A DNA stretch of 54,387 bases. Origin: a virus. Lineage: Duplodnaviria > Caudoviricetes. Below, in pieces: positions 8,927 to 16,360 of the stretch. The position numbers and the translations under genes were made by a program. Numbering within the stretch: position 1 is the stretch's first letter; each line of letters begins with the position of its first letter. The notes under the pieces were generated by a model. The model saw nothing but the letters and a program-made list of their open reading frames with translations. It was not told the DNA's origin and ran no database searches. Where the stretch lies: the IMG/VR virus record IMGVR_UViG_3300028610_002189, positions 1-54,387 of that record, one strand, 5' to 3'.

Positions 8927-9154
8927 CTATTTTGTCTCTTGAAAGAGTTGAACTAAATTAAAGTTTATTGTATCTACCACTATGATGAATATTATATGAC
9001 CACAACCCTTACAATAAAAGATCTCTAATGCAGTATCTTTCTTGAAAAAAGGAACTTCAGGAAATAGTTCTATTCCACTTTCCTTGTCTATGAAGTCACT
9101 TTCACTCTTACCATAATAGTACTCTTTTTTACAGGTCTTACAGATTACTATCAT
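8927..9154 (-). CDS. Zn-ribbon-like protein, possible paralogue of 482-796
   Basis: CKTCKKEY..DFID..G...PE..FYCKGC. Confidence 0.6.
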   Translation of the reverse strand: MIVICKTCKKEYYYGKSESDFIDKESGIELFPEVPFFKKDTALEIFYCKGCGHIIFIIVVDTINFNLVQLFQETK

Positions 9155-9164
9155 ATTAACCTCC

Positions 9165-9497
9165 TTAATAACCTCTTTGTAGAAACATTTCTTTTCTTCT
9201 TTTTGTTAATTCTATCTTTATTAAGTACTCTTTGGGCCATTCAGACTCAACAAGGTACTCTCTACATACCTCTACTACTCTTTTGAGGGGTAAGTATGAA
9301 TATTTGACTTGGAGTCCTTGAGCGAGTATTTTAGCCTTCTGATCACGCATTTCCTCTATCACCGCTAACTTAAACTCATATGGAAATATTTCTTCTCCTT
9401 CTTTTGCCCTGACTATATCTTTATCTATTGTTTCTCTTGTCCTATGTATGAATGTGCCAAACAAAGTGCATTGTTCTCTTACTCTTTGCCAATTCAT
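9165..9497 (-). CDS. Hypothetical protein
   Basis: AAGGAGG SD. Confidence 0.6.
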   Translation of the reverse strand: MNWQRVREQCTLFGTFIHRTRETIDKDIVRAKEGEEIFPYEFKLAVIEEMRDQKAKILAQGLQVKYSYLPLKRVVEVCREYLVESEWPKEYLIKIELTKRRKEMFLQRGY

Positions 9498-9509
9498 TTA
9501 ATACCTCCT

Positions 9510-10100
9510 TGGCTATTGTTTGGTAGAAGTGGTTATTGCCCTTTGCCCTACATATATGCAGTTTATATGCCATGTATATACATAGAGTTTACATTTGTAA
9601 GTTGCTGTATATATAACATAAAATAATATCTATTTATACATATGTCTTTAGATGTTAGTAAAAGTGTGTTGTTTTATATACATGAGTGTGTTAATAATAA
9701 CACAAGAGGTTTATAAGTTGTTGTATATACAAGGTTTAGAGGCAGGTGTGTATATACACAGACTATATCAAAATATACACAGTCTATAGAGGTATTGTAA
9801 GGGTTAAAACAGGGTATAAGGTTGTTAATAAAGGGAAGTGTTATGGATATGTTTCTGTTGGAGATATATATCTATCTCTTTTTGATACACTAATGGGGCG
9901 TAGTCTTGTTAGAGGTGGAAGTATATCTATGTGGGGGAGATTCTACAAAGTAGCTCATACGTCAGGATCTGCGTGTACGAAGTAGAAACATATCTAGAAG
10001 CTCCCTATGAGCGGAGCAGACCAGTAGGGCGTAGTCAGTTTTTGAGGTTAAGTGCTATCTAGAGGTTATAATCTTATAGAGTTATTTTATGTTAATCTAT
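9510..10100. other. Long non-coding region rich in short palindromes (candidate regulatory hub or origin)
   Basis: No credible ORF; TGTATATACA x3, TAGAA-N4-TTCTA variants, GGGCGTAGTC x2. Confidence 0.45.
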
Positions 10101-10102
10101 AT

Positions 10103-10633
10103 CTACGCTGTTGCTACAGCTACCTTAGTTTTAGAACCCTTCTTAGTCTTACGAGTTCTTATTTCAGCTTTGAGTGCTTTTTCTTCTTTAGCAATCTTAG
10201 CCTTTTTAGATTTCATGTTCTTAAGCTTGTCTTTTGTAGTTTTCTTAGCTATCTTAGTCTTACTCCAACAAGGAGCTTTTTCTGTACCATATACGTCTTT
10301 TGAAAAATCATACATGGTCTTCTTACTTTTAATACGAGCAAGAATAGCTTTCTTCAGCACAACTATGGGTATATCAAACTGAAGCCATGTCATATGGAAG
10401 GCTTGTGCTGCTTTCTTACCATACTTCGTAGCTTCTTTTGGTAATGCATCTACCGGCATGGTAATCTTCACAAGACCAGTAGATCCTTTCTTGCTAATTC
10501 CAACTTGTACTTCTTTAGTCTTTGAATTAACAAGTTGATTCCCATCTCTTGCAAGATGATGTGTTTTGACATTAGCTTTGGCTATCTCTGATAATAACTT
10601 TGCTGCTCTTCTTCTTGCTTCTTTCTGATTCAT
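10103..10633 (-). CDS. Basic Lys/Ala-rich histone-like protein, paralogue 2
   Basis: Very similar to C-terminal 180 aa of 12547-13380; K/A-rich tail. Confidence 0.7.
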   Translation of the reverse strand: MNQKEARRRAAKLLSEIAKANVKTHHLARDGNQLVNSKTKEVQVGISKKGSTGLVKITMPVDALPKEATKYGKKAAQAFHMTWLQFDIPIVVLKKAILARIKSKKTMYDFSKDVYGTEKAPCWSKTKIAKKTTKDKLKNMKSKKAKIAKEEKALKAEIRTRKTKKGSKTKVAVATA

Positions 10634-10634
10634 G

Positions 10635-10961
10635 TTACCTCCCTAGCATTTTTCTAATAAGATTATTGAATCTTGGACCTCTATCATAACCACAACGGCT
10701 ATGATAATCACATTTCATACCAGTACTAGCATCAAGATAATGCATAATGTCTTGATCAAACTGGTCTAGTACTTCATGTTCTTCTTTTACAAAGGGTCTG
10801 CTTTTAGGTTTAGATTCTTGACATCTTACATCTCCAGTCTTTAATACTATCCAATATAGTGTCCTCTTATCTTTTTTAGGAAAATGCACCTCCCATTCTT
10901 CTGTATCTAATAATTCCTCTGCATCCATTGTTTCAAAATTAAAAACTTTAGCTTTATTCAT
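10635..10961 (-). CDS. Hypothetical protein
   Basis: AAGGAG SD right after pseudoknot copy A. Confidence 0.6.
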   Translation of the reverse strand: MNKAKVFNFETMDAEELLDTEEWEVHFPKKDKRTLYWIVLKTGDVRCQESKPKSRPFVKEEHEVLDQFDQDIMHYLDASTGMKCDYHSRCGYDRGPRFNNLIRKMLGR

Positions 10962-10972
10962 TTATCTCCTTT

Positions 10973-10999
10973 TAGGTAGTTTAATGACATACCTAGGTC
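10973..10999 (-). ncRNA. Predicted cis-acting H-type pseudoknot, copy A
   Basis: GAC-C-UAGGUA-U-GUC-AUUAAAC-UACCUA. Confidence 0.7.
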
Positions 11000-11006
11000 T
11001 TTGAGG

Positions 11007-11345
11007 TTAGATGTTTATAACAAACGTATCATTATACTTTACAATCTCATGTCTTTCACCTGTTGACCAGTAAATATGTTCTTCACATATTCCAGTTGGG
11101 TTCTTATCTTTTGAGCATTGTACATATAATGTTGTCCATCCTATGCTGTCAAAATGTGATATGTTTACCATAGCTACACATATTTGACAAAGTTCGTTAA
11201 CTTTATCTTCCCAACCTGAATAGATCTTATTAGTTAAAGGATTAGAGAATATATTATGCAGTATACTACACATCTCTTCTTCGTCGTCAGCAGTTTCTAT
11301 CGTTACTTCTGTTTCATCATCAAGATTAAATGTTCCCACTTTCAT
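11007..11345 (-). CDS. Hypothetical protein
   Basis: ORF; AAGGAG just upstream. Confidence 0.6.
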   Translation of the reverse strand: MKVGTFNLDDETEVTIETADDEEEMCSILHNIFSNPLTNKIYSGWEDKVNELCQICVAMVNISHFDSIGWTTLYVQCSKDKNPTGICEEHIYWSTGERHEIVKYNDTFVINI

Positions 11346-11380
11346 CTCCTTTCTTCATCAAATAACAGAATTGTTTTATT

Positions 11381-11407
11381 TGAGCAGTTTAATGTCTTGC
11401 CCAGGAC
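11381..11407 (-). ncRNA. Predicted cis-acting H-type pseudoknot, copy B
   Basis: GUC-C-UGGGCA-A-GAC-AUUAAAC-UGCUCA. Confidence 0.7.
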
Positions 11408-11414
11408 TCTAAGG

Positions 11415-11705
11415 TTAACTTACTTCGTCAAGCAATACTTCAGCTTTCTTTAACAAGTTAGGAAGTTTCTTACTTATTTTCTTGAAATCTTCGCCTATAA
11501 GCCTTGGCATCTTTGAGGTTGTAATAGTGTCTTTAGAGTTTTCAGCACCGTACTTTGTTTGCTCAATGTTTATTGCAACCTTTGGCATACCATTTCCATA
11601 TTTCATTATTCTTACAACTATAGCTTGAAACTGTTGACCATCATCAACTAACACTATCTTGCCTACTTTCTTTAACTCCTTGTCTTTTTTGCTACTGTAA
11701 GCCAT
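11415..11705 (-). CDS. Putative PC4-like (whirly-type fold) nucleic-acid-binding protein
   Basis: MAY...D.EL...V.I.KY.NG.PK..I.......K.PRL..E pattern resembles small PC4-like proteins; from memory, not searched. Confidence 0.4.
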   Translation of the reverse strand: MAYSSKKDKELKKVGKIVLVDDGQQFQAIVVRIMKYGNGMPKVAINIEQTKYGAENSKDTITTSKMPRLIGEDFKKISKKLPNLLKKAEVLLDEVS

Positions 11706-11717
11706 GTTATTTACCTC

Positions 11718-11957
11718 CTAATATTTAAGGGTACGGTTATCTATATTTTTATCGGCGAGTATAAATCCTATTTCACTACGAACTTTTCTTAGTTTTTCAC
11801 AGATTGTCTTATATTTCTTCTGTAAACTATGAGTTTTGTGTATTAGATGTACAGGTCTACATACTATGCTGTTGTAGACTTTTTGTGCTTGGCATCTTAA
11901 ACTTCTAGCTTTCCTACATAAGTCATCTAATTTTGCTCTTACATTATTTTTATTCAT
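11718..11957 (-). CDS. Basic coiled-coil hypothetical protein
   Basis: AAGGAG SD right after pseudoknot copy C. Confidence 0.55.
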   Translation of the reverse strand: MNKNNVRAKLDDLCRKARSLRCQAQKVYNSIVCRPVHLIHKTHSLQKKYKTICEKLRKVRSEIGFILADKNIDNRTLKY

Positions 11958-11968
11958 ACTTTCTCCTT

Positions 11969-11995
11969 TAGGCAGTTTAGTGTCTTACCCAGGAC
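11969..11995 (-). ncRNA. Predicted cis-acting H-type pseudoknot, copy C
   Basis: GUC-C-UGGGUA-A-GAC-ACUAAAC-UGCCUA. Confidence 0.7.
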
Positions 11996-12002
11996 TCTAA
12001 GG

Positions 12003-12290
12003 TTAGGCTACTTCATTAGGCCAAGTGCATATGCAATAATAATTCTTTTTTACTTCAGGATTATGAGGTATTGGACTTTGAAACACTATCTTATTACTGA
12101 AATTACATTTATAGTCACCTGCTGGATCCAGTTTGTCTATTGTCCTACAACTCATTGGAATTCCATCTTCTATTTCTCTTGGGTCTTCAGCCATTATAGG
12201 ACAGTGCCAGTCATCTTTTGGAATGTGCCTTATTTCGCTATTATGTGTTTCCATTAATACATGAACATATCTAAACTCGCCATATTTCAT
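12003..12290 (-). CDS. Cys-containing hypothetical protein
   Basis: AAGGAGG SD. Confidence 0.6.
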   Translation of the reverse strand: MKYGEFRYVHVLMETHNSEIRHIPKDDWHCPIMAEDPREIEDGIPMSCRTIDKLDPAGDYKCNFSNKIVFQSPIPHNPEVKKNYYCICTWPNEVA

Positions 12291-12493
12291 AATTCCTCCT
12301 TTTGTAGTTCAGTCTCTCTAAATTCATGAAAAGAAGTTTGGACAACTGGAATCTCTTCTCTATATTCACATTCTGGTACTAAACAAACTAACATTACTCT
12401 TACTGCGACTCCATAACGGATAGCAGTCCCTTTTACAACTACATTTTCTTCATCACATTTTTTGCACCTAATTGTGAATCCATCTATTTTCAT
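12287..12493 (-). CDS. Zn-ribbon hypothetical protein
   Basis: CKKC...CLVPEC; AAGGAGG SD. Confidence 0.6.
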   Translation of the reverse strand: MKIDGFTIRCKKCDEENVVVKGTAIRYGVAVRVMLVCLVPECEYREEIPVVQTSFHEFRETELQKEEL

Positions 12494-12515
12494 AATTCCT
12501 CCTTTTGTGGGTTAA

Positions 12516-12536
12516 GGGGGAGCATTTAACTCCCCC
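12516..12536 (-). terminator. GC-rich hairpin after histone-like paralogue 3
   Basis: GGGGGAG-N7-CTCCCCC; weak U tract. Confidence 0.5.
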
Positions 12537-12546
12537 CATAGATTAA

Positions 12547-13380
12547 CTAGACAGTCGCTGGAGCTGTTTTTATACCTTTAACTACCTTTGCACCTTTTTT
12601 GGCTTTACGGTTCTTGATTTCGGCTTTAAGTGCTTTCTCCTCATCAGCAATTTTAGCCCTCTTGGTTTTTATATCTTTAAGCTTATCCTCTACACTTTTC
12701 TTGACTGAACTTACCTTATTCCAGCAAGGAGCGTCTTTTGTACCGTATACATCCTCTGCAAATTCGTACATTGTTTTATTATTTTTGATTCTTGCAAGAA
12801 TAGCTTTCTTAAGGCTATTTCTTGAAATGTCGAACTGCAACCATGTCATATGGAAAGCTTGTGCTGCTTTCTTACCATGTTCTGCTACTTCTCTAGGAAG
12901 CACTCCTAATGGCATGGTAACTTTGACAAGTCCAGTACCGCCTTTCTTAGAAATGCCTACCTGAACCTCTCCAGTCTTGCTGTTAATTAACCAGTTTCCA
13001 TCTCTTCCAATGTGATGAGTCTTAGCATTAGCTTTGGCAACCTCTGCTAACACTTCTTTAGCCATTTTACGGGCCTTAGTGTGATTCATGTTTTCCTCCT
13101 TTTTGGATGATTTGGTGTTAATTTTAGCAGGTTTTGTGCTATTTGCAACCTTTTTGGTTGAGGTTTCTACATTTTTGACCTTCTTTGCTTGCTTTCGCAC
13201 ACCTTTTAAGGCTTTTCGTGGTTTTGGACTCTTTCGGTCGTCAATAATAACAACTTCTCCGGCTTTGTTCAATATTTCATTCTTTTCCACAATGTTTCCT
13301 CCTTTTTCGTTGTTTTTAGCTGTTTTTTCCTCTTTTTCATTAACCTTCTCCAACTTGCTTCTTAGTGCATTTAAGCTCAT
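12547..13380 (-). CDS. Basic Lys/Ala-rich histone-like protein, paralogue 3, with N-terminal extension and internal starts
   Basis: KKAAQAFHMTWLQFDI motif identical to 10103 ORF; in-frame SD+start at about 13290 (GTG) and 13089 (ATG). Confidence 0.7.
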   Translation of the reverse strand: MSLNALRSKLEKVNEKEEKTAKNNEKGGNIVEKNEILNKAGEVVIIDDRKSPKPRKALKGVRKQAKKVKNVETSTKKVANSTKPAKINTKSSKKEENMNHTKARKMAKEVLAEVAKANAKTHHIGRDGNWLINSKTGEVQVGISKKGGTGLVKVTMPLGVLPREVAEHGKKAAQAFHMTWLQFDISRNSLKKAILARIKNNKTMYEFAEDVYGTKDAPCWNKVSSVKKSVEDKLKDIKTKRAKIADEEKALKAEIKNRKAKKGAKVVKGIKTAPATV

Positions 13381-13391
13381 ATTCCTCCTTT

Positions 13392-13418
13392 TAGGTAGTT
13401 TAATGACATACCCAGGTC
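13392..13418 (-). ncRNA. Predicted cis-acting H-type pseudoknot, copy D
   Basis: GAC-C-UGGGUA-U-GUC-AUUAAAC-UACCUA. Confidence 0.7.
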
Positions 13419-13425
13419 TTTAAGA

Positions 13426-13689
13426 TTAGATTACTTTATATCTACAGAATACTGTGTTAATTTCAAATCCACAACAATTTGGACATAAGCCATGATCATC
13501 ATGTAGTTCATCTATAAACATACATGGTCGTGCTCCTCCATCTTCACCAGCCATAGGACACTCTTCAGCAGAGATAGAAGCTCCATTTGGATTAGATAGG
13601 TTAAGTTTCTCTTTTTCACCTGGGGATAATATTCCTTCTCCCATATGTCCAATCCAAACTTTTATTTTAAACTGTTTCATTAAGCTCAT
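13426..13689 (-). CDS. Cys-rich hypothetical protein
   Basis: GGGAGG SD before MSLMKQ; CP...C...CPNCC..C. Confidence 0.55.
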   Translation of the reverse strand: MSLMKQFKIKVWIGHMGEGILSPGEKEKLNLSNPNGASISAEECPMAGEDGGARPCMFIDELHDDHGLCPNCCGFEINTVFCRYKVI

Positions 13690-13690
13690 A

Positions 13691-14032
13691 TTACCTCCCT
13701 TTCCAAAAGTATTCATAACAATTAACACGCTTTCCACTAAGAGGCAGTGTTACCCATGTTCTCTTAGCTGCGTTAGCCAACACACCATCACCTCCTTTTC
13801 TGTTATAACTTATAGACTTAGATTTTCTTGGTGCTTTGTATGGCATGAATTTCAAGTGACTACACGAGCGTCTGTAAGAATATCCCTTACAGTTGCAATT
13901 CCATGCCGTTTCCACCCATCTAAGTTCATAAGCATCTCTCTTAGCTTTCCATTCAGGCCAACATAATACAAGATCCTTAGTATCTTTCTTGTAGCAATAT
14001 CTACCCTTATTAGGTATCAGTATTACCTTCAC
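13691..14032 (-). CDS. SWIM zinc-finger protein
   Basis: WNCNCKGYSYRRSCSHL matches CxC-x(n)-CxH SWIM signature. Confidence 0.7.
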   Translation of the reverse strand: MKVILIPNKGRYCYKKDTKDLVLCWPEWKAKRDAYELRWVETAWNCNCKGYSYRRSCSHLKFMPYKAPRKSKSISYNRKGGDGVLANAAKRTWVTLPLSGKRVNCYEYFWKGR

Positions 14033-14241
14033 ACCCTAGTCTCCAAAACTTCGAATATCATTCTAGGTGGTATATCATATACCTCATTACTAATAATCAC
14101 TCTAAAACCATACTTTTTAGTCAGGTGTATTTTTAGATGTGGTACTAATATTGCACAACTCTTTGGCTTGGTTTCACAAATACCAAGCAGACATATGCAT
14201 CTTCTACCTCTTTGTTTTTTGTGGTATGTTCTTACTAACAA
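14029..14241 (-). CDS. Hypothetical protein
   Basis: GGAGGTGAT SD before TTG. Confidence 0.5.
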   Translation of the reverse strand: MLVRTYHKKQRGRRCICLLGICETKPKSCAILVPHLKIHLTKKYGFRVIISNEVYDIPPRMIFEVLETRV

Positions 14242-14381
14242 TAGATATCACCTCCCATCTATAATGTTTCATATACGCAATATGCCATTATCTTAGCTAC
14301 AACTAATACAAATCCCATTACTTCTACTGGAAATAATGGAGCTCCTACAATTAGACCTTTGTAGTTAACAACTATCATTGT

Positions 14382-14591
14382 TTATTTCACCTCCTCACCT
14401 TCATAAAATTTCTCTGTTACTAAATAAGGATATCCCGGCTCTATTTGATAATCTTCAGGGTCTGCAATTTCCATTCCATATACAATCATATGTTCATTAC
14501 TATTATGTTCAAACGAATACACTGTTGCAGTTTTGTCTTTAAGCTCTTCAGGTAATTGGTTTATTTGCTCTGCTAATTCTCTAAATGTCAT
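14382..14591 (-). CDS. Hypothetical protein (MTFRELAEQIN.L type)
   Basis: GGAGGTG SD. Confidence 0.6.
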   Translation of the reverse strand: MTFRELAEQINQLPEELKDKTATVYSFEHNSNEHMIVYGMEIADPEDYQIEPGYPYLVTEKFYEGEEVK

Positions 14592-14867
14592 TTACTTCAC
14601 CTCCTCTGTACCTATGAACTCTTTTGCCTTTCTAAAGCTCCAAAGTTCTGGCTGAAGAATCGTACTCTTATCTTTCCAACCTCCAGGATTGTTAACATTG
14701 AACCATACCATTCTACCACGCTTGCTATCTTCAGTGATATCAAGTAGGATCAACATATCCTTTTCTACCTTATGCCTCTTGGCTGCTAAAGCTCGCATGT
14801 TGTCAATAAACCCACTCAATTCAGCTTCAGCAGACTCAAGCACTGCTATTTTGTCTGCTATTGTCAT
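14592..14867 (-). CDS. Hypothetical protein
   Basis: Coupled (ATGA overlap) to upstream small ORF. Confidence 0.55.
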   Translation of the reverse strand: MTIADKIAVLESAEAELSGFIDNMRALAAKRHKVEKDMLILLDITEDSKRGRMVWFNVNNPGGWKDKSTILQPELWSFRKAKEFIGTEEVK

Positions 14868-15022
14868 TCAACTTGCTTGTAGTGCCTCCATGTTATTCCA
14901 AGTTTGTTACACAATCGTCTACGACCAGATCGCCCTAGTCCAGACAACATCATGTTTTTAATAGCTTCTTCTATGTTTTCAAAGTAGTCTGGTACGACCG
15001 ATTGTACAGGCTTTTTCTTCAT
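14864..15022 (-). CDS. 52-aa hypothetical protein (not in ORF track)
   Basis: GAGGAGG SD; MKKKPVQSVV...LCNKLGITWRHYKQVE. Confidence 0.5.
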   Translation of the reverse strand: MKKKPVQSVVPDYFENIEEAIKNMMLSGLGRSGRRRLCNKLGITWRHYKQVE

Positions 15023-15034
15023 ATACGCCTCCTC

Positions 15035-15271
15035 TTAGTTGTTGTTGAATTTGTTAGCTAGCATACGAACACAATTATTCATCGTGCTTTTCTTCCTAAT
15101 ACCTACAATGGCATTAGGTGATACATAAAAGACCTTATTGTTCTTAAGGACTCTTACTGTTACTGTATTCTTACATATACCCATGACTTCAGCAACCATA
15201 GAACCCTTGCGAGTTCCATCATTGAAGTGTGTCAAATGAGTATATACTGTATACCCACGTTTTACTAACAT
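15035..15271 (-). CDS. Small beta-rich (SH3/Sm-like?) hypothetical protein
   Basis: AAGGAG SD; alternating beta pattern VAEVMGI..TVTVRV...VFYVSPNAI. Confidence 0.5.
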   Translation of the reverse strand: MLVKRGYTVYTHLTHFNDGTRKGSMVAEVMGICKNTVTVRVLKNNKVFYVSPNAIVGIRKKSTMNNCVRMLANKFNNN

Positions 15272-15347
15272 AGTCTTTCTCCTTTTGTTAAGTGTTAGAT
15301 TCCAAGTTACAAACCAACAGGACTATAGCATATTATTATCACCTCCC

Positions 15348-15563
15348 TTATATTGTTCTAACCCTAATGGTATTCTTACTAATACGCCTACCACACACAA
15401 TTCTAGACATACCTATTATTGGCTTACACGCACCTACAAGTTTGCTGTTCTTAGTCATAGCTAAAGTAACACAAGCTTTCTGGTTTGTGCTACCAGCTTT
15501 CAGCTTACGCCTATAGTCTTTTAGTACCTCTTTCCAATGTTTACCATTTGCCATAGTTCTCAC
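15348..15563 (-). CDS. Basic hypothetical protein
   Basis: GGAGGTG SD favours MANGK start at 15554. Confidence 0.5.
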   Translation of the reverse strand: MRTMANGKHWKEVLKDYRRKLKAGSTNQKACVTLAMTKNSKLVGACKPIIGMSRIVCGRRISKNTIRVRTI

Positions 15564-16360
15564 CTCCTAATTAGGTTATTAGATATGAAATAACGATTGA
15601 TGCTATAACACTGATAGCCAACAATACAGCTTCTGATGTTTTCATTATGTCCTTTCTATAATGTATGCACATGCACATACATACTCTTAAGGTTAACTTG
15701 CAACAGGTAGCCTCTGCAATAAAAGGCTGTGCAACCATACTTCAACAACGCCTTAAGTTTCTCAACTAACATGCTATCACCTCCTTTATAACTATCTATT
15801 AAAGGTTTTGTAGTTTGTTAACAAGTCAACATATCTTAACTATGCATATGTACAAATATAAACACCCTACCCCTACTTGCCATAAGCAATTGATATACAC
15901 ACATAAGCTCCCCTCATCTAGAATGAGAAATAAAATTTAGAGGTAAAAAAAATGTATATACAAAAGAATTATATCAAGAAGGGAATTAAGAATATAGGTA
16001 TGGCCTTACATAGCCTATATATGCGGCTACGGCTGTTGGAAATAGAAAATTATTGTTGTTTTTGGGAGAGATGTTAAATTAGATTAGGATATGTAGGTGA
16101 TGATGGGGGTTTCGATATGTAAGAGGTATATCAGAAAAAAAAATAGGCATCTATTGGGGGGTTATGTTAAAGAACATGTATATTACTATCACAGCTATTA
16201 CTTGACAACATGCCATTATAAGTATAAGAAATCTAAAGGAGTAGTTATACCTATAAAGAAAGTAATTACCTACTATCACCCCTGTTATTGTTGCGAAGAG
16301 AAATTGCATTGTTTTTCCTCCCTATTTTGCTATTATGTAAATGGGTTGACAACTACGAGA

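Follow-up and report, generated by a model that had tools for sequence, protein, structure and literature searches.

The operator of gene 32 in phages T4 and T2 is a compact H-type pseudoknot within a phage mRNA, and the preQ1-I riboswitch is a very small H-type pseudoknot whose A-rich tail ends at the Shine-Dalgarno sequence (SD). The compact frameshift pseudoknots of luteoviruses such as beet western yellows virus (BWYV) measure about 27–28 nt and have a very short first loop (L1) with a C, an A-rich last loop and a position 6–8 nt past the A-site codon. In the exoribonuclease-resistant RNAs of flaviviruses and plant viruses a small pseudoknot stops a processive enzyme and defines an RNA end. 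Multiple hammerheads in prophages were read as processing of long phage transcripts in the part of Perreault et al. 2011 that treats them (PMC3088659). Here we describe four copies of a 27-nt element on the minus strand of the IMG/VR virus record IMGVR_UViG_3300028610_002189 (Duplodnaviria; Caudoviricetes), of which positions 1 to 54,387 were analysed (the window, 54,387 nt). Judged from sequence comparison, the elements are RNA copies of an H-type pseudoknot module that is uncatalogued and very widespread. Being shared by numerous unrelated phages and bacteria, the knot is probably an undescribed general signal marking gene boundaries on mRNA.

The four window elements share the layout S1-C-S2-N-S1'-A(U/C)UAAAC-S2', with S1 and S2 as the two stems (Table 1). 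Their minus-strand positions, as given by an initial annotation made from the letters of the window, were borne out by direct reading and by pattern matching; a degenerate pattern gave exactly 4 matches in the window, against 0 expected from 100 dinucleotide shuffles. Reading also confirmed GAC/GUC as the S1 of A and D, GUC/GAC as that of B and C, and an S2 that keeps 6 pairs in all four copies, entirely Watson-Crick in A and with 1, 2 and 1 G-U pairs in B, C and D, respectively. As the copies are of two types only (A/D and B/C), they record just one or two compensatory events. Folding energies were unexceptional, with z-scores from -0.5 to +0.7 that refer to nested folds only, ViennaRNA having no means to score the pseudoknot itself. 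The support for the fold is therefore comparative and not thermodynamic, and it comes from 52 further distinct viral and 96 bacterial copies beyond the four of the window. The longer S1 hairpin (UUAG-A-GUC) that is seen in the window was not general, since columns 7–9 paired in less than 50% of the copies.

Across the collected copies the module consisted of an S1 of 3 bp (with a 4th pair in about 60% of copies), a single C as L1, an S2 of 5–6 bp, a second loop (L2) of 1 nt and a third loop (L3) of N-Y-U-A-A-A-C, so that about ten unpaired bases were fixed alongside two covarying helices. Standard pairs filled 93.7% of the pair cells in 56 viral copies, compared with 86.0% after shuffling (0/500 shuffles were as high) and no more than 39% with the pairing partners slid. 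The corresponding values for the 96 bacterial copies were 93.9% and 86.6%. Both stems covaried among the homologues, also at columns that the search pattern left free. The two bases preceding this pattern were unconstrained and pair with the W of S1'; the middle S1 pair was UA in 31, AU in 24 and another combination in 1 of the 56 viral copies. S1 was paired in 100% of the bacterial copies, the middle pair being UA in 74, AU in 21 and CG in 1. On the other side of the pattern, the likewise unconstrained S2 pair 16-36 was GC in 30, AU in 12, GU in 8 and other in 6 viral copies, and the bacterial S2 pair 17-35 was GC in 55 and AU in 31. The fourth S1 pair also covaried in the bacterial set (UA 23, CG 18, UG 17, other 38). 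Further swaps found by eye were UAAGCA/UGCUUA, UGGACA/UGUCUA and UGGUCA/UGACCA in S2 and AUC/GAU in S1. The outermost S2 pair was weak. The first S1 pair was G-C in 116/123 copies, and U stood at position -1 in 62/123, which are no more than hints of an RNase P substrate or an exonuclease-resistant RNA.

Among 1107 pair cells, G-U combinations numbered 84 and A-C combinations 18, and this excess identifies the strand shown here as the RNA. The argument of the initial annotation, that the G-U pairs fit one strand only, was upheld in this way, and its description of a strand-specific H-type pseudoknot RNA acting in cis at gene junctions is supported. An element working at the level of DNA, such as a promoter, a recombination or insertion site or a miniature mobile element, could explain why a near-identical short sequence recurs in unrelated genomes; 'promoter' features are annotated in some Staphylococcus phage records, and two copies are CRISPR spacers. 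We consider such an element very improbable. The compensatory changes preserve two crossing helices, the preference for G-U over A-C marks one strand, and the 'promoter' features are merely BPROM predictions. There were no terminal repeats or target duplications, and the flanking sequence held no information except a U preference at -1 and a G-poor downstream side. Finally, the knot lies on the coding strand, and the stop codon of an open reading frame (ORF) was present on the same strand within 60 nt upstream in 66/80 distinct viral copies.

The 22-nt pattern CCTRGGYAWGWCAYTAAACTRC matched 65 IMG/VR loci and 29 loci in species-representative bacterial genomes, and a slightly looser pattern matched at least 120 bacterial loci. 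By our own arithmetic, chance should account for at most a few matches to the 22-nt pattern, which has 16 fixed and 6 two-fold positions. The knot-bearing loci ranged in GC content from 27% to 56%. The bacteria concerned belong to Omnitrophota, Planctomycetota, Desulfobacterota, Chloroflexota, Saccharibacteria, Akkermansia and cyanobacteria and, within Bacillota, to lactobacilli, Enterococcus, Paenibacillus and Clostridium. A covariance model built from 56 distinct copies found more diverged knots in the same contigs, 28 being listed, of which the last two lacked the fold. The model also confirmed the knot in cultured phages, namely cyanophage S-EIVl (6 copies), Moorella MTATph1, Corynebacterium phi673 and Streptococcus Javan271, and in one Microviridae genome. 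Weaker and probably diverged members were found in Staphylococcus Phietavirus (E 0.003-0.005) and in Page-like phages of Bacillus megaterium (E 0.04). When 36-nt knots were compared with cultured phages by BLAST, 177 records matched at E up to 10; many of these were chance matches inside genes, for example in mycobacteriophage tail genes, and only records confirmed or weakly confirmed by the model were relied on. A permissive regular-expression finder, with false positives of 1/5 in the window, reported 253 copies, including 9 in one contig (L026) and 6 in each of two others (L068 and L169), these counts taking in false positives. No near-identical copy was found in complete E. coli genomes.

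Searches against Rfam 15 gave no match at the gathering score in the window, none on the elements at E up to 10 and none on the bacterial versions of the knot, which agrees with the earlier statement that no named family could be assigned. In the open full-text literature, supplements (which may list motifs) not being covered, the knot sequence was not found printed and no description was found by topic. The knot is a new, very widespread RNA motif. The proteins beside it were unrelated to each other, as clustering separated 45 upstream proteins into 37 groups and 38 downstream ones into 31, and none of the ten neighbouring proteins of the window had a homologue in 224 other knot-bearing loci. 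The knot is autonomous: it folds alone and needs no locally encoded partner. Being present in several copies per genome and across phyla, it is not the autoregulatory site of one protein. The proposal that the knots coordinate this particular gene block through a local binder found no support, since the flanking proteins are unrelated elsewhere, and the PC4-like or histone-like proteins named as candidate binders had no such Pfam or PHROGs call among the neighbours.

The spacer between stop codon and knot was determined for the 66 viral cases, a set that counts the four window copies and some contigs that are near-duplicates. There were 16 spacers of 6 nt, 14 of 7 nt and 6 of 8 nt, giving 36/66 at 6–8 nt, with a sharp lower bound at 5–6 nt, almost no spacers below 5 nt and a thin tail. 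The distance of exactly 7 nt that had been reported thus holds for all four window copies, but as a rule for viral copies it widens to 6–8 nt generally. The GenBank annotation of S-EIVl places 4/6 knots 6–7 nt past annotated stops, with the next start 20–28 nt after the knot, and by eye these leaders lack an SD. Three more specific features of the junctions were considered and discarded. The identity of the stop codon was not special, TAA showing a mild excess only (37/66 vs 486/1082 in the background); a second in-frame stop in the spacer was seen by eye in about 7/40 cases, near expectation; and a mini-ORF running from an AUG inside copies A and D to the next start was not general (L014, by eye).

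Knots were also found at the ends of units other than ORFs. One follows a tRNA end by 2 nt (L053) and another lies inside a tRNA array (L171). A perfect hairpin ended within 12 nt upstream of 79/253 copies, compared with 38/239 control sites. U-tracts followed the knot in 34/253 copies and at 9 control sites; they were absent after each of the four window copies, which are therefore not intrinsic terminators. Several individual loci had unusual arrangements. In a Butyrivibrio locus (L186:2259-2336) an ORF stop, 7 nt and the knot are followed directly by a type III hammerhead-like ribozyme (E 1.3e-4, 30.2 bits, under the Rfam gathering score of 48.5). A Selenomonadaceae metagenome-assembled genome (L169), with 4 pattern matches and 6 copies by the permissive finder, has a long hairpin ahead of the knot in several units within about 4 kb, and the unit at position 251 has a terminator-like hairpin after the knot; the whole resembles a small-RNA array. 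In Veillonella (L086:635-682) and Bradymonadales (L132, about 1793) the knot was seen by eye between identical 35–37-nt repeats, which makes it a CRISPR spacer; the two arrays are unrelated. In the Staphylococcus phages B166 (L227:607-643) and B236 (L228:600-638) 'promoter' features, which are BPROM predictions and not experimental, lie over a diverged knot upstream of the scaffold gene.

We tentatively propose, with confidence a little short of even, that the knot may serve mRNA processing or stability as an autonomous pseudoknot that marks boundaries, or punctuates, and is packed close against the terminating ribosome. Transcribed inside the minus-strand polycistronic mRNA and folding unaided, the module would mark the 3' boundary of the upstream unit: an ORF here, a tRNA or hairpin at some other loci. 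We infer that cleavage of the transcript, whether by the knot or by a universal RNase, would take place at the knot or next to it, and that alternatively or additionally exonucleases would halt there, so that each gene or short gene block would receive its own defined, capped end. The 6–8 nt would represent the closest distance at which a ribosome on the stop codon leaves the knot unmelted; hardly any naked RNA would then remain at the junction, as the knot would be packed as closely as possible to that ribosome. The exonuclease block or processing site considered in the initial annotation stays among our best readings. Punctuation is ranked first because the knot is autonomous, conserved across phyla, placed at unit ends and found flanking blocks of varying identity. 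It is also ranked first because the layout is the same as that of the multiple hammerheads of prophages, and because of a criterion of Weinberg et al. 2017, in the relevant part of which RNAs that span multiple phyla and have a pseudoknot and many nucleotides of high conservation are said to usually perform sophisticated tasks (PMC5737381).

A second group of knots stands in a particular relation to coding sequence. Among 108 bacterial copies, 37 follow a conserved ORF of 20–25 codons whose peptide reads ..[KR][FYW]M[LI]..V[AST]HC..GC and matches no NCBIfam family. In all 37 of these pattern-defined leader ORFs S1 starts exactly 8 nt past the last conserved Cys codon, while the stop position varies (-8, -2, +4, +10, +16) and the residues beyond the last Cys are not conserved. 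The family comprises L071:3256-3333 (-), L076, L087 and 36 more bacterial loci, and the 8-nt distance holds in all 39. The genes after these modules encode Rrf2, NifU, SufC, ferritin, ferredoxin, flavodiiron and GrdB-like proteins, and the hosts are anaerobes. By eye, Fur/Zur-like palindromes were seen in some of the promoters.

Both spacing rules bear on the question of whether the knot acts directly on the ribosome. It would then form a mechanical roadblock at the mRNA entrance while a stop codon or, in the leader ORFs, the conserved Cys codon occupied the A site; a slowed or fixed ribosome, prevented from run-on or sliding, would set termination, coupling or re-initiation at the next cistron, and in the leader ORFs the knot together with the conserved nascent peptide would form a programmed stall. 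The peak of the viral spacers at 6–8 nt, the 6–7 nt of 4/6 S-EIVl knots and the constant 8 nt from the Cys codon despite the variable stop are consistent with this explanation, as is a geometry that matches compact frameshift-stimulating pseudoknots, and a ribosome as partner would account for the conservation across phyla. However, knots also occur after tRNAs and after terminator-like and long hairpins, where no ribosome arrives, and because of these non-coding contexts ribosome action is disfavoured as the general role. The sharp lower bound of the spacing with its tail is, moreover, what mere closest packing would produce. We regard direct ribosome action, the chief rival to punctuation, as unlikely on balance, though a substantial possibility.

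Recoding in particular was examined at the four window copies. Their spacing of 7 nt in 4/4 falls within the 5–9 nt past the A-site codon that is the criterion for frameshift knots, but no slippery heptamer X XXY YYZ was found ahead of any of them, a TAA precedes the spacer and no overlapping -1 ORF exists, and a -1 frameshift element was rejected. A readthrough knot of the murine leukemia virus type was rejected as well, there being no in-frame extension: the next in-frame stop past the TAA lies 1 codon on in copies B, C and D and 15 codons on in A. With in-frame stops within 1–15 codons, no frameshift or readthrough product is expected from the window copies, and these early stops and the missing heptamer also speak against a ribosome-directed role.

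On the downstream side the distances were less regular, the next start lying 10 to more than 300 nt from the knot. S2' abuts AAGGAG in window copies A, C and D, unlike copy B, for which the nearest downstream SD is about 40 nt away. Within 25 nt, an SD-like pentamer was found in 65/253 copies as against 35 at control sites. A phage scaffold gene lay downstream in 6/32 bacterial or prophage cases and also in Staphylococcus, Streptococcus and Bacillus phages; the knot further precedes replication genes, and a single-strand-binding protein gene stands 20 nt after one S-EIVl copy. These findings would suit an element serving the downstream gene as a 5' insulator, standby site or translation enhancer, which would raise expression of the next cistron by keeping the leader single-stranded or by docking on the 30S platform. 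The contact between S2' and SD in 3/4 window copies, the excess of SD-like pentamers, the S-EIVl starts 20–28 nt past the knot without SD, the G-poor sequence after the knot and the recurrence before abundantly needed genes can all be read in this way. The broad distance to the start argues against it, as do the hammerhead that separates one copy from the next gene, the copies located between tRNAs and the terminator-like U-tract after 34/253 copies. We therefore think it quite unlikely that service to the downstream gene is the general role.

A binding site for a ligand or protein, that is an operator or riboswitch, or an RNA polymerase pause signal, could also switch the adjacent genes. The smallest riboswitches are tiny H-type knots with an A-rich L3 beside the SD, tandem copies occur (L080, L093, L133, L161), an outer helix pairs with the SD of a 75-aa gene in L128 and L130, and genes for Rrf2, NifU, SufC, ferritin and ferredoxin lie after the bacterial leader-ORF modules. 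Most copies, however, lack an expression platform, no Rfam riboswitch matched, and 4–9 copies per phage stand beside unrelated genes without a common neighbouring protein. We give this explanation little credence, and the small-ligand switch suggested in the initial annotation is possible but weakly supported. As for the individual loci, the tandem knots, seen also in L154, are 0–12 nt apart. In L128:6241-6290 and L130:156-200 the helix stands after a promoter, surrounds the knot and takes up the SD of the gene for the 75-aa protein, which is conserved; the layout is riboswitch-like.

Several observations weigh against punctuation by cutting or capping. A plain hairpin would suffice against exonucleases, and one junction of the window block has a 9-bp GC hairpin. 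The strictly conserved loops thus point to catalysis or to a partner of greater specificity. The 8-nt rule of the leader ORFs and the 6–8 nt rule of the stops fit direct ribosome action at least as well, and the recurrence before scaffold, single-strand-binding and replication genes could mean service to the downstream gene. A hammerhead core was found next to only 1/237 copies, and the counts of knots take in near-duplicate contigs and do not represent independent events. To our knowledge, no natural self-cleaving ribozyme is as small as 27 nt. A bolder form of the punctuation proposal, which we offer as speculative and rather improbable, is that the 27-nt knot would be a self-cleaving ribozyme of a new class, smaller than all other natural ones; it would punctuate polycistronic phage mRNAs and tRNA arrays and in anaerobic bacteria would be gated by a ribosome stalled on the conserved Cys-rich leader peptide.

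The window itself has a CheckV completeness of 39% and carries small minus-strand genes from 1 to 19.7 kb, with plus-strand structural genes beyond. The coordinates of the knots and of the adjoining stop codons and start regions are given in Table 1.

Table 1. Knot copies and adjoining signals on the minus strand of the window; pairs of sequences are the two strands of a stem, and E is the covariance-model value.
Feature	Positions (strand)	S1	L1	S2	L2	L3	E
Copy D	13392..13418 (-)	GAC/GUC, 13416-13418/13405-13407	C, 13415	UGGGUA/UACCUA, 13409-13414/13392-13397	U, 13408	AUUAAAC, 13398-13404	7.8e-11
Copy C	11969..11995 (-)	GUC/GAC		UGGGUA/UGCCUA	A	ACUAAAC	5.9e-10
Copy B	11381..11407 (-)	GUC/GAC		UGGGCA/UGCUCA	A	AUUAAAC	1.2e-11
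Copy A	10973..10999 (-)	GAC/GUC		UAGGUA/UACCUA	U	AUUAAAC	4.7e-11
TAA of ORF 13426-13737 and 7-nt spacer TCTTAAA, ahead of copy D	13419..13428 (-)						
TAA of ORF 12003-12290 and 7-nt spacer CCTTAGA, ahead of copy C	11996..12005 (-)						
TAA of ORF 11415-11705 and 7-nt spacer CCTTAGA, ahead of copy B	11408..11417 (-)						
TAA of ORF 11007-11345 and 7-nt spacer CCTCAAA, ahead of copy A	11000..11009 (-)						
AAAGGAGG SD and ATG of ORF 12547-13380, touching S2' of copy D	13378..13391 (-)						
AAGGAG SD and ATG of ORF 11718-11957, touching copy C	11955..11968 (-)						
AAAGGAG SD and ATG of ORF 10635-10961, touching copy A	10959..10972 (-)						

At curated cut-offs none of the ten genes around the knots matched a Pfam family, nor did any match a PHROG family, and window positions 9000-16000 showed no similarity to phage DNA. 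The GC hairpin of the block, GGGGGGAGU/GCUCCCCCU at 12511-12537 (-), has a centroid energy of -17.5 kcal/mol and no U-tract, and takes the place of the knot at the junction following a 277-aa gene. The 277-aa protein (12547-13380 (-)) and a 176-aa protein (10103-10633 (-)) are paralogues with 68% identity over 161 aa. The larger ORF contains an in-frame AAGGAGG and ATG at residue 98, where the likeness to the 176-aa paralogue starts, and may therefore give two products or represent a fusion.

By the criteria of the field, as set out in PMC5737381, an RNA with such properties usually has a specific biochemical task. The 27-nt fold is conserved almost to the letter from tailed phages and a microvirus to bacteria of numerous phyla, and is absent from Rfam. 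Whether it cuts, caps, or stops ribosomes or nucleases, it would represent a general rule for separating neighbouring genes on one transcript in compact genomes. It is also a very small portable part that synthetic operons could use, and it opens a way into a new family of Cys-rich leader ORFs, which in anaerobes precede iron-sulfur and redox genes.

Compared with the gene 32 operator, the likeness pointed out in the initial annotation stands for the geometry but not for the placement: the window copies do not lie ahead of a single-strand-binding protein gene, and the proteins downstream of them have no Pfam or PHROG family, so that the setting of that operator was not found here. In S-EIVl, one copy does stand 20 nt ahead of such a gene. 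The preQ1-I riboswitch is alike in being a very small, A-rich H-type knot ending at the SD; it was rejected as an identity for the knot, given the lack of an Rfam match, the lack of queuosine genes nearby, the different stem proportions and the many copies per genome. With the luteovirus (BWYV) frameshift knots the element shares size, C as L1, an A-rich L3 and the spacing. It differs from them in having a short S1 and a long S2, a stop codon in place of a slippery heptamer, and no -1 ORF. The exoribonuclease-resistant RNAs are similar in being small knots that could halt a processive enzyme, and dissimilar in that no ring-forming fold is evident here and the setting is bacterial.

The pistol ribozyme core, in the description of it by Harris et al. 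2015, has a P1 hairpin, a 6-bp loop pseudoknot and an A-rich linker (PMC4604425). As far as this description goes, our knot resembles it in the short hairpin, the loop pairing downstream, the A-rich linker after the hairpin and the association with phages. Since the sequence after S2' is not conserved, P2, P3 and the GU cleavage junction are absent, and in 3/4 window copies the SD directly follows S2', where pistol would have P2/P3; with no Rfam pistol match even at E up to 10, pistol was rejected. Theta ribozymes, which are similar to that of hepatitis delta virus (HDV), adjoin phage tRNAs in the part of Kienbeck et al. 2024 that describes them (PMC10879173). The HDV/theta core so described is like the knot in its 3-bp hairpin and in a loop pairing just past a 7-nt strand, and two of our knots lie beside tRNA genes. 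A 6-nt cis partner of L3 within 100 nt was found for 21 copies vs 24 in the reversed control upstream, and for 25 vs 30 downstream; the 7-nt strand of L3 being without a cis partner, there is no P1 as in HDV-like ribozymes, and the knot also differs in lacking P2 and J4/2.

From the prophage hammerheads the knot is distinguished by its 27 nt and by the absence of the CUGANGA ... GAAA core. In layout, as far as it is described for those hammerheads (PMC3088659), the two are alike: in phages and prophages, several intergenic copies on one strand border single genes or short gene blocks that differ in identity from case to case.

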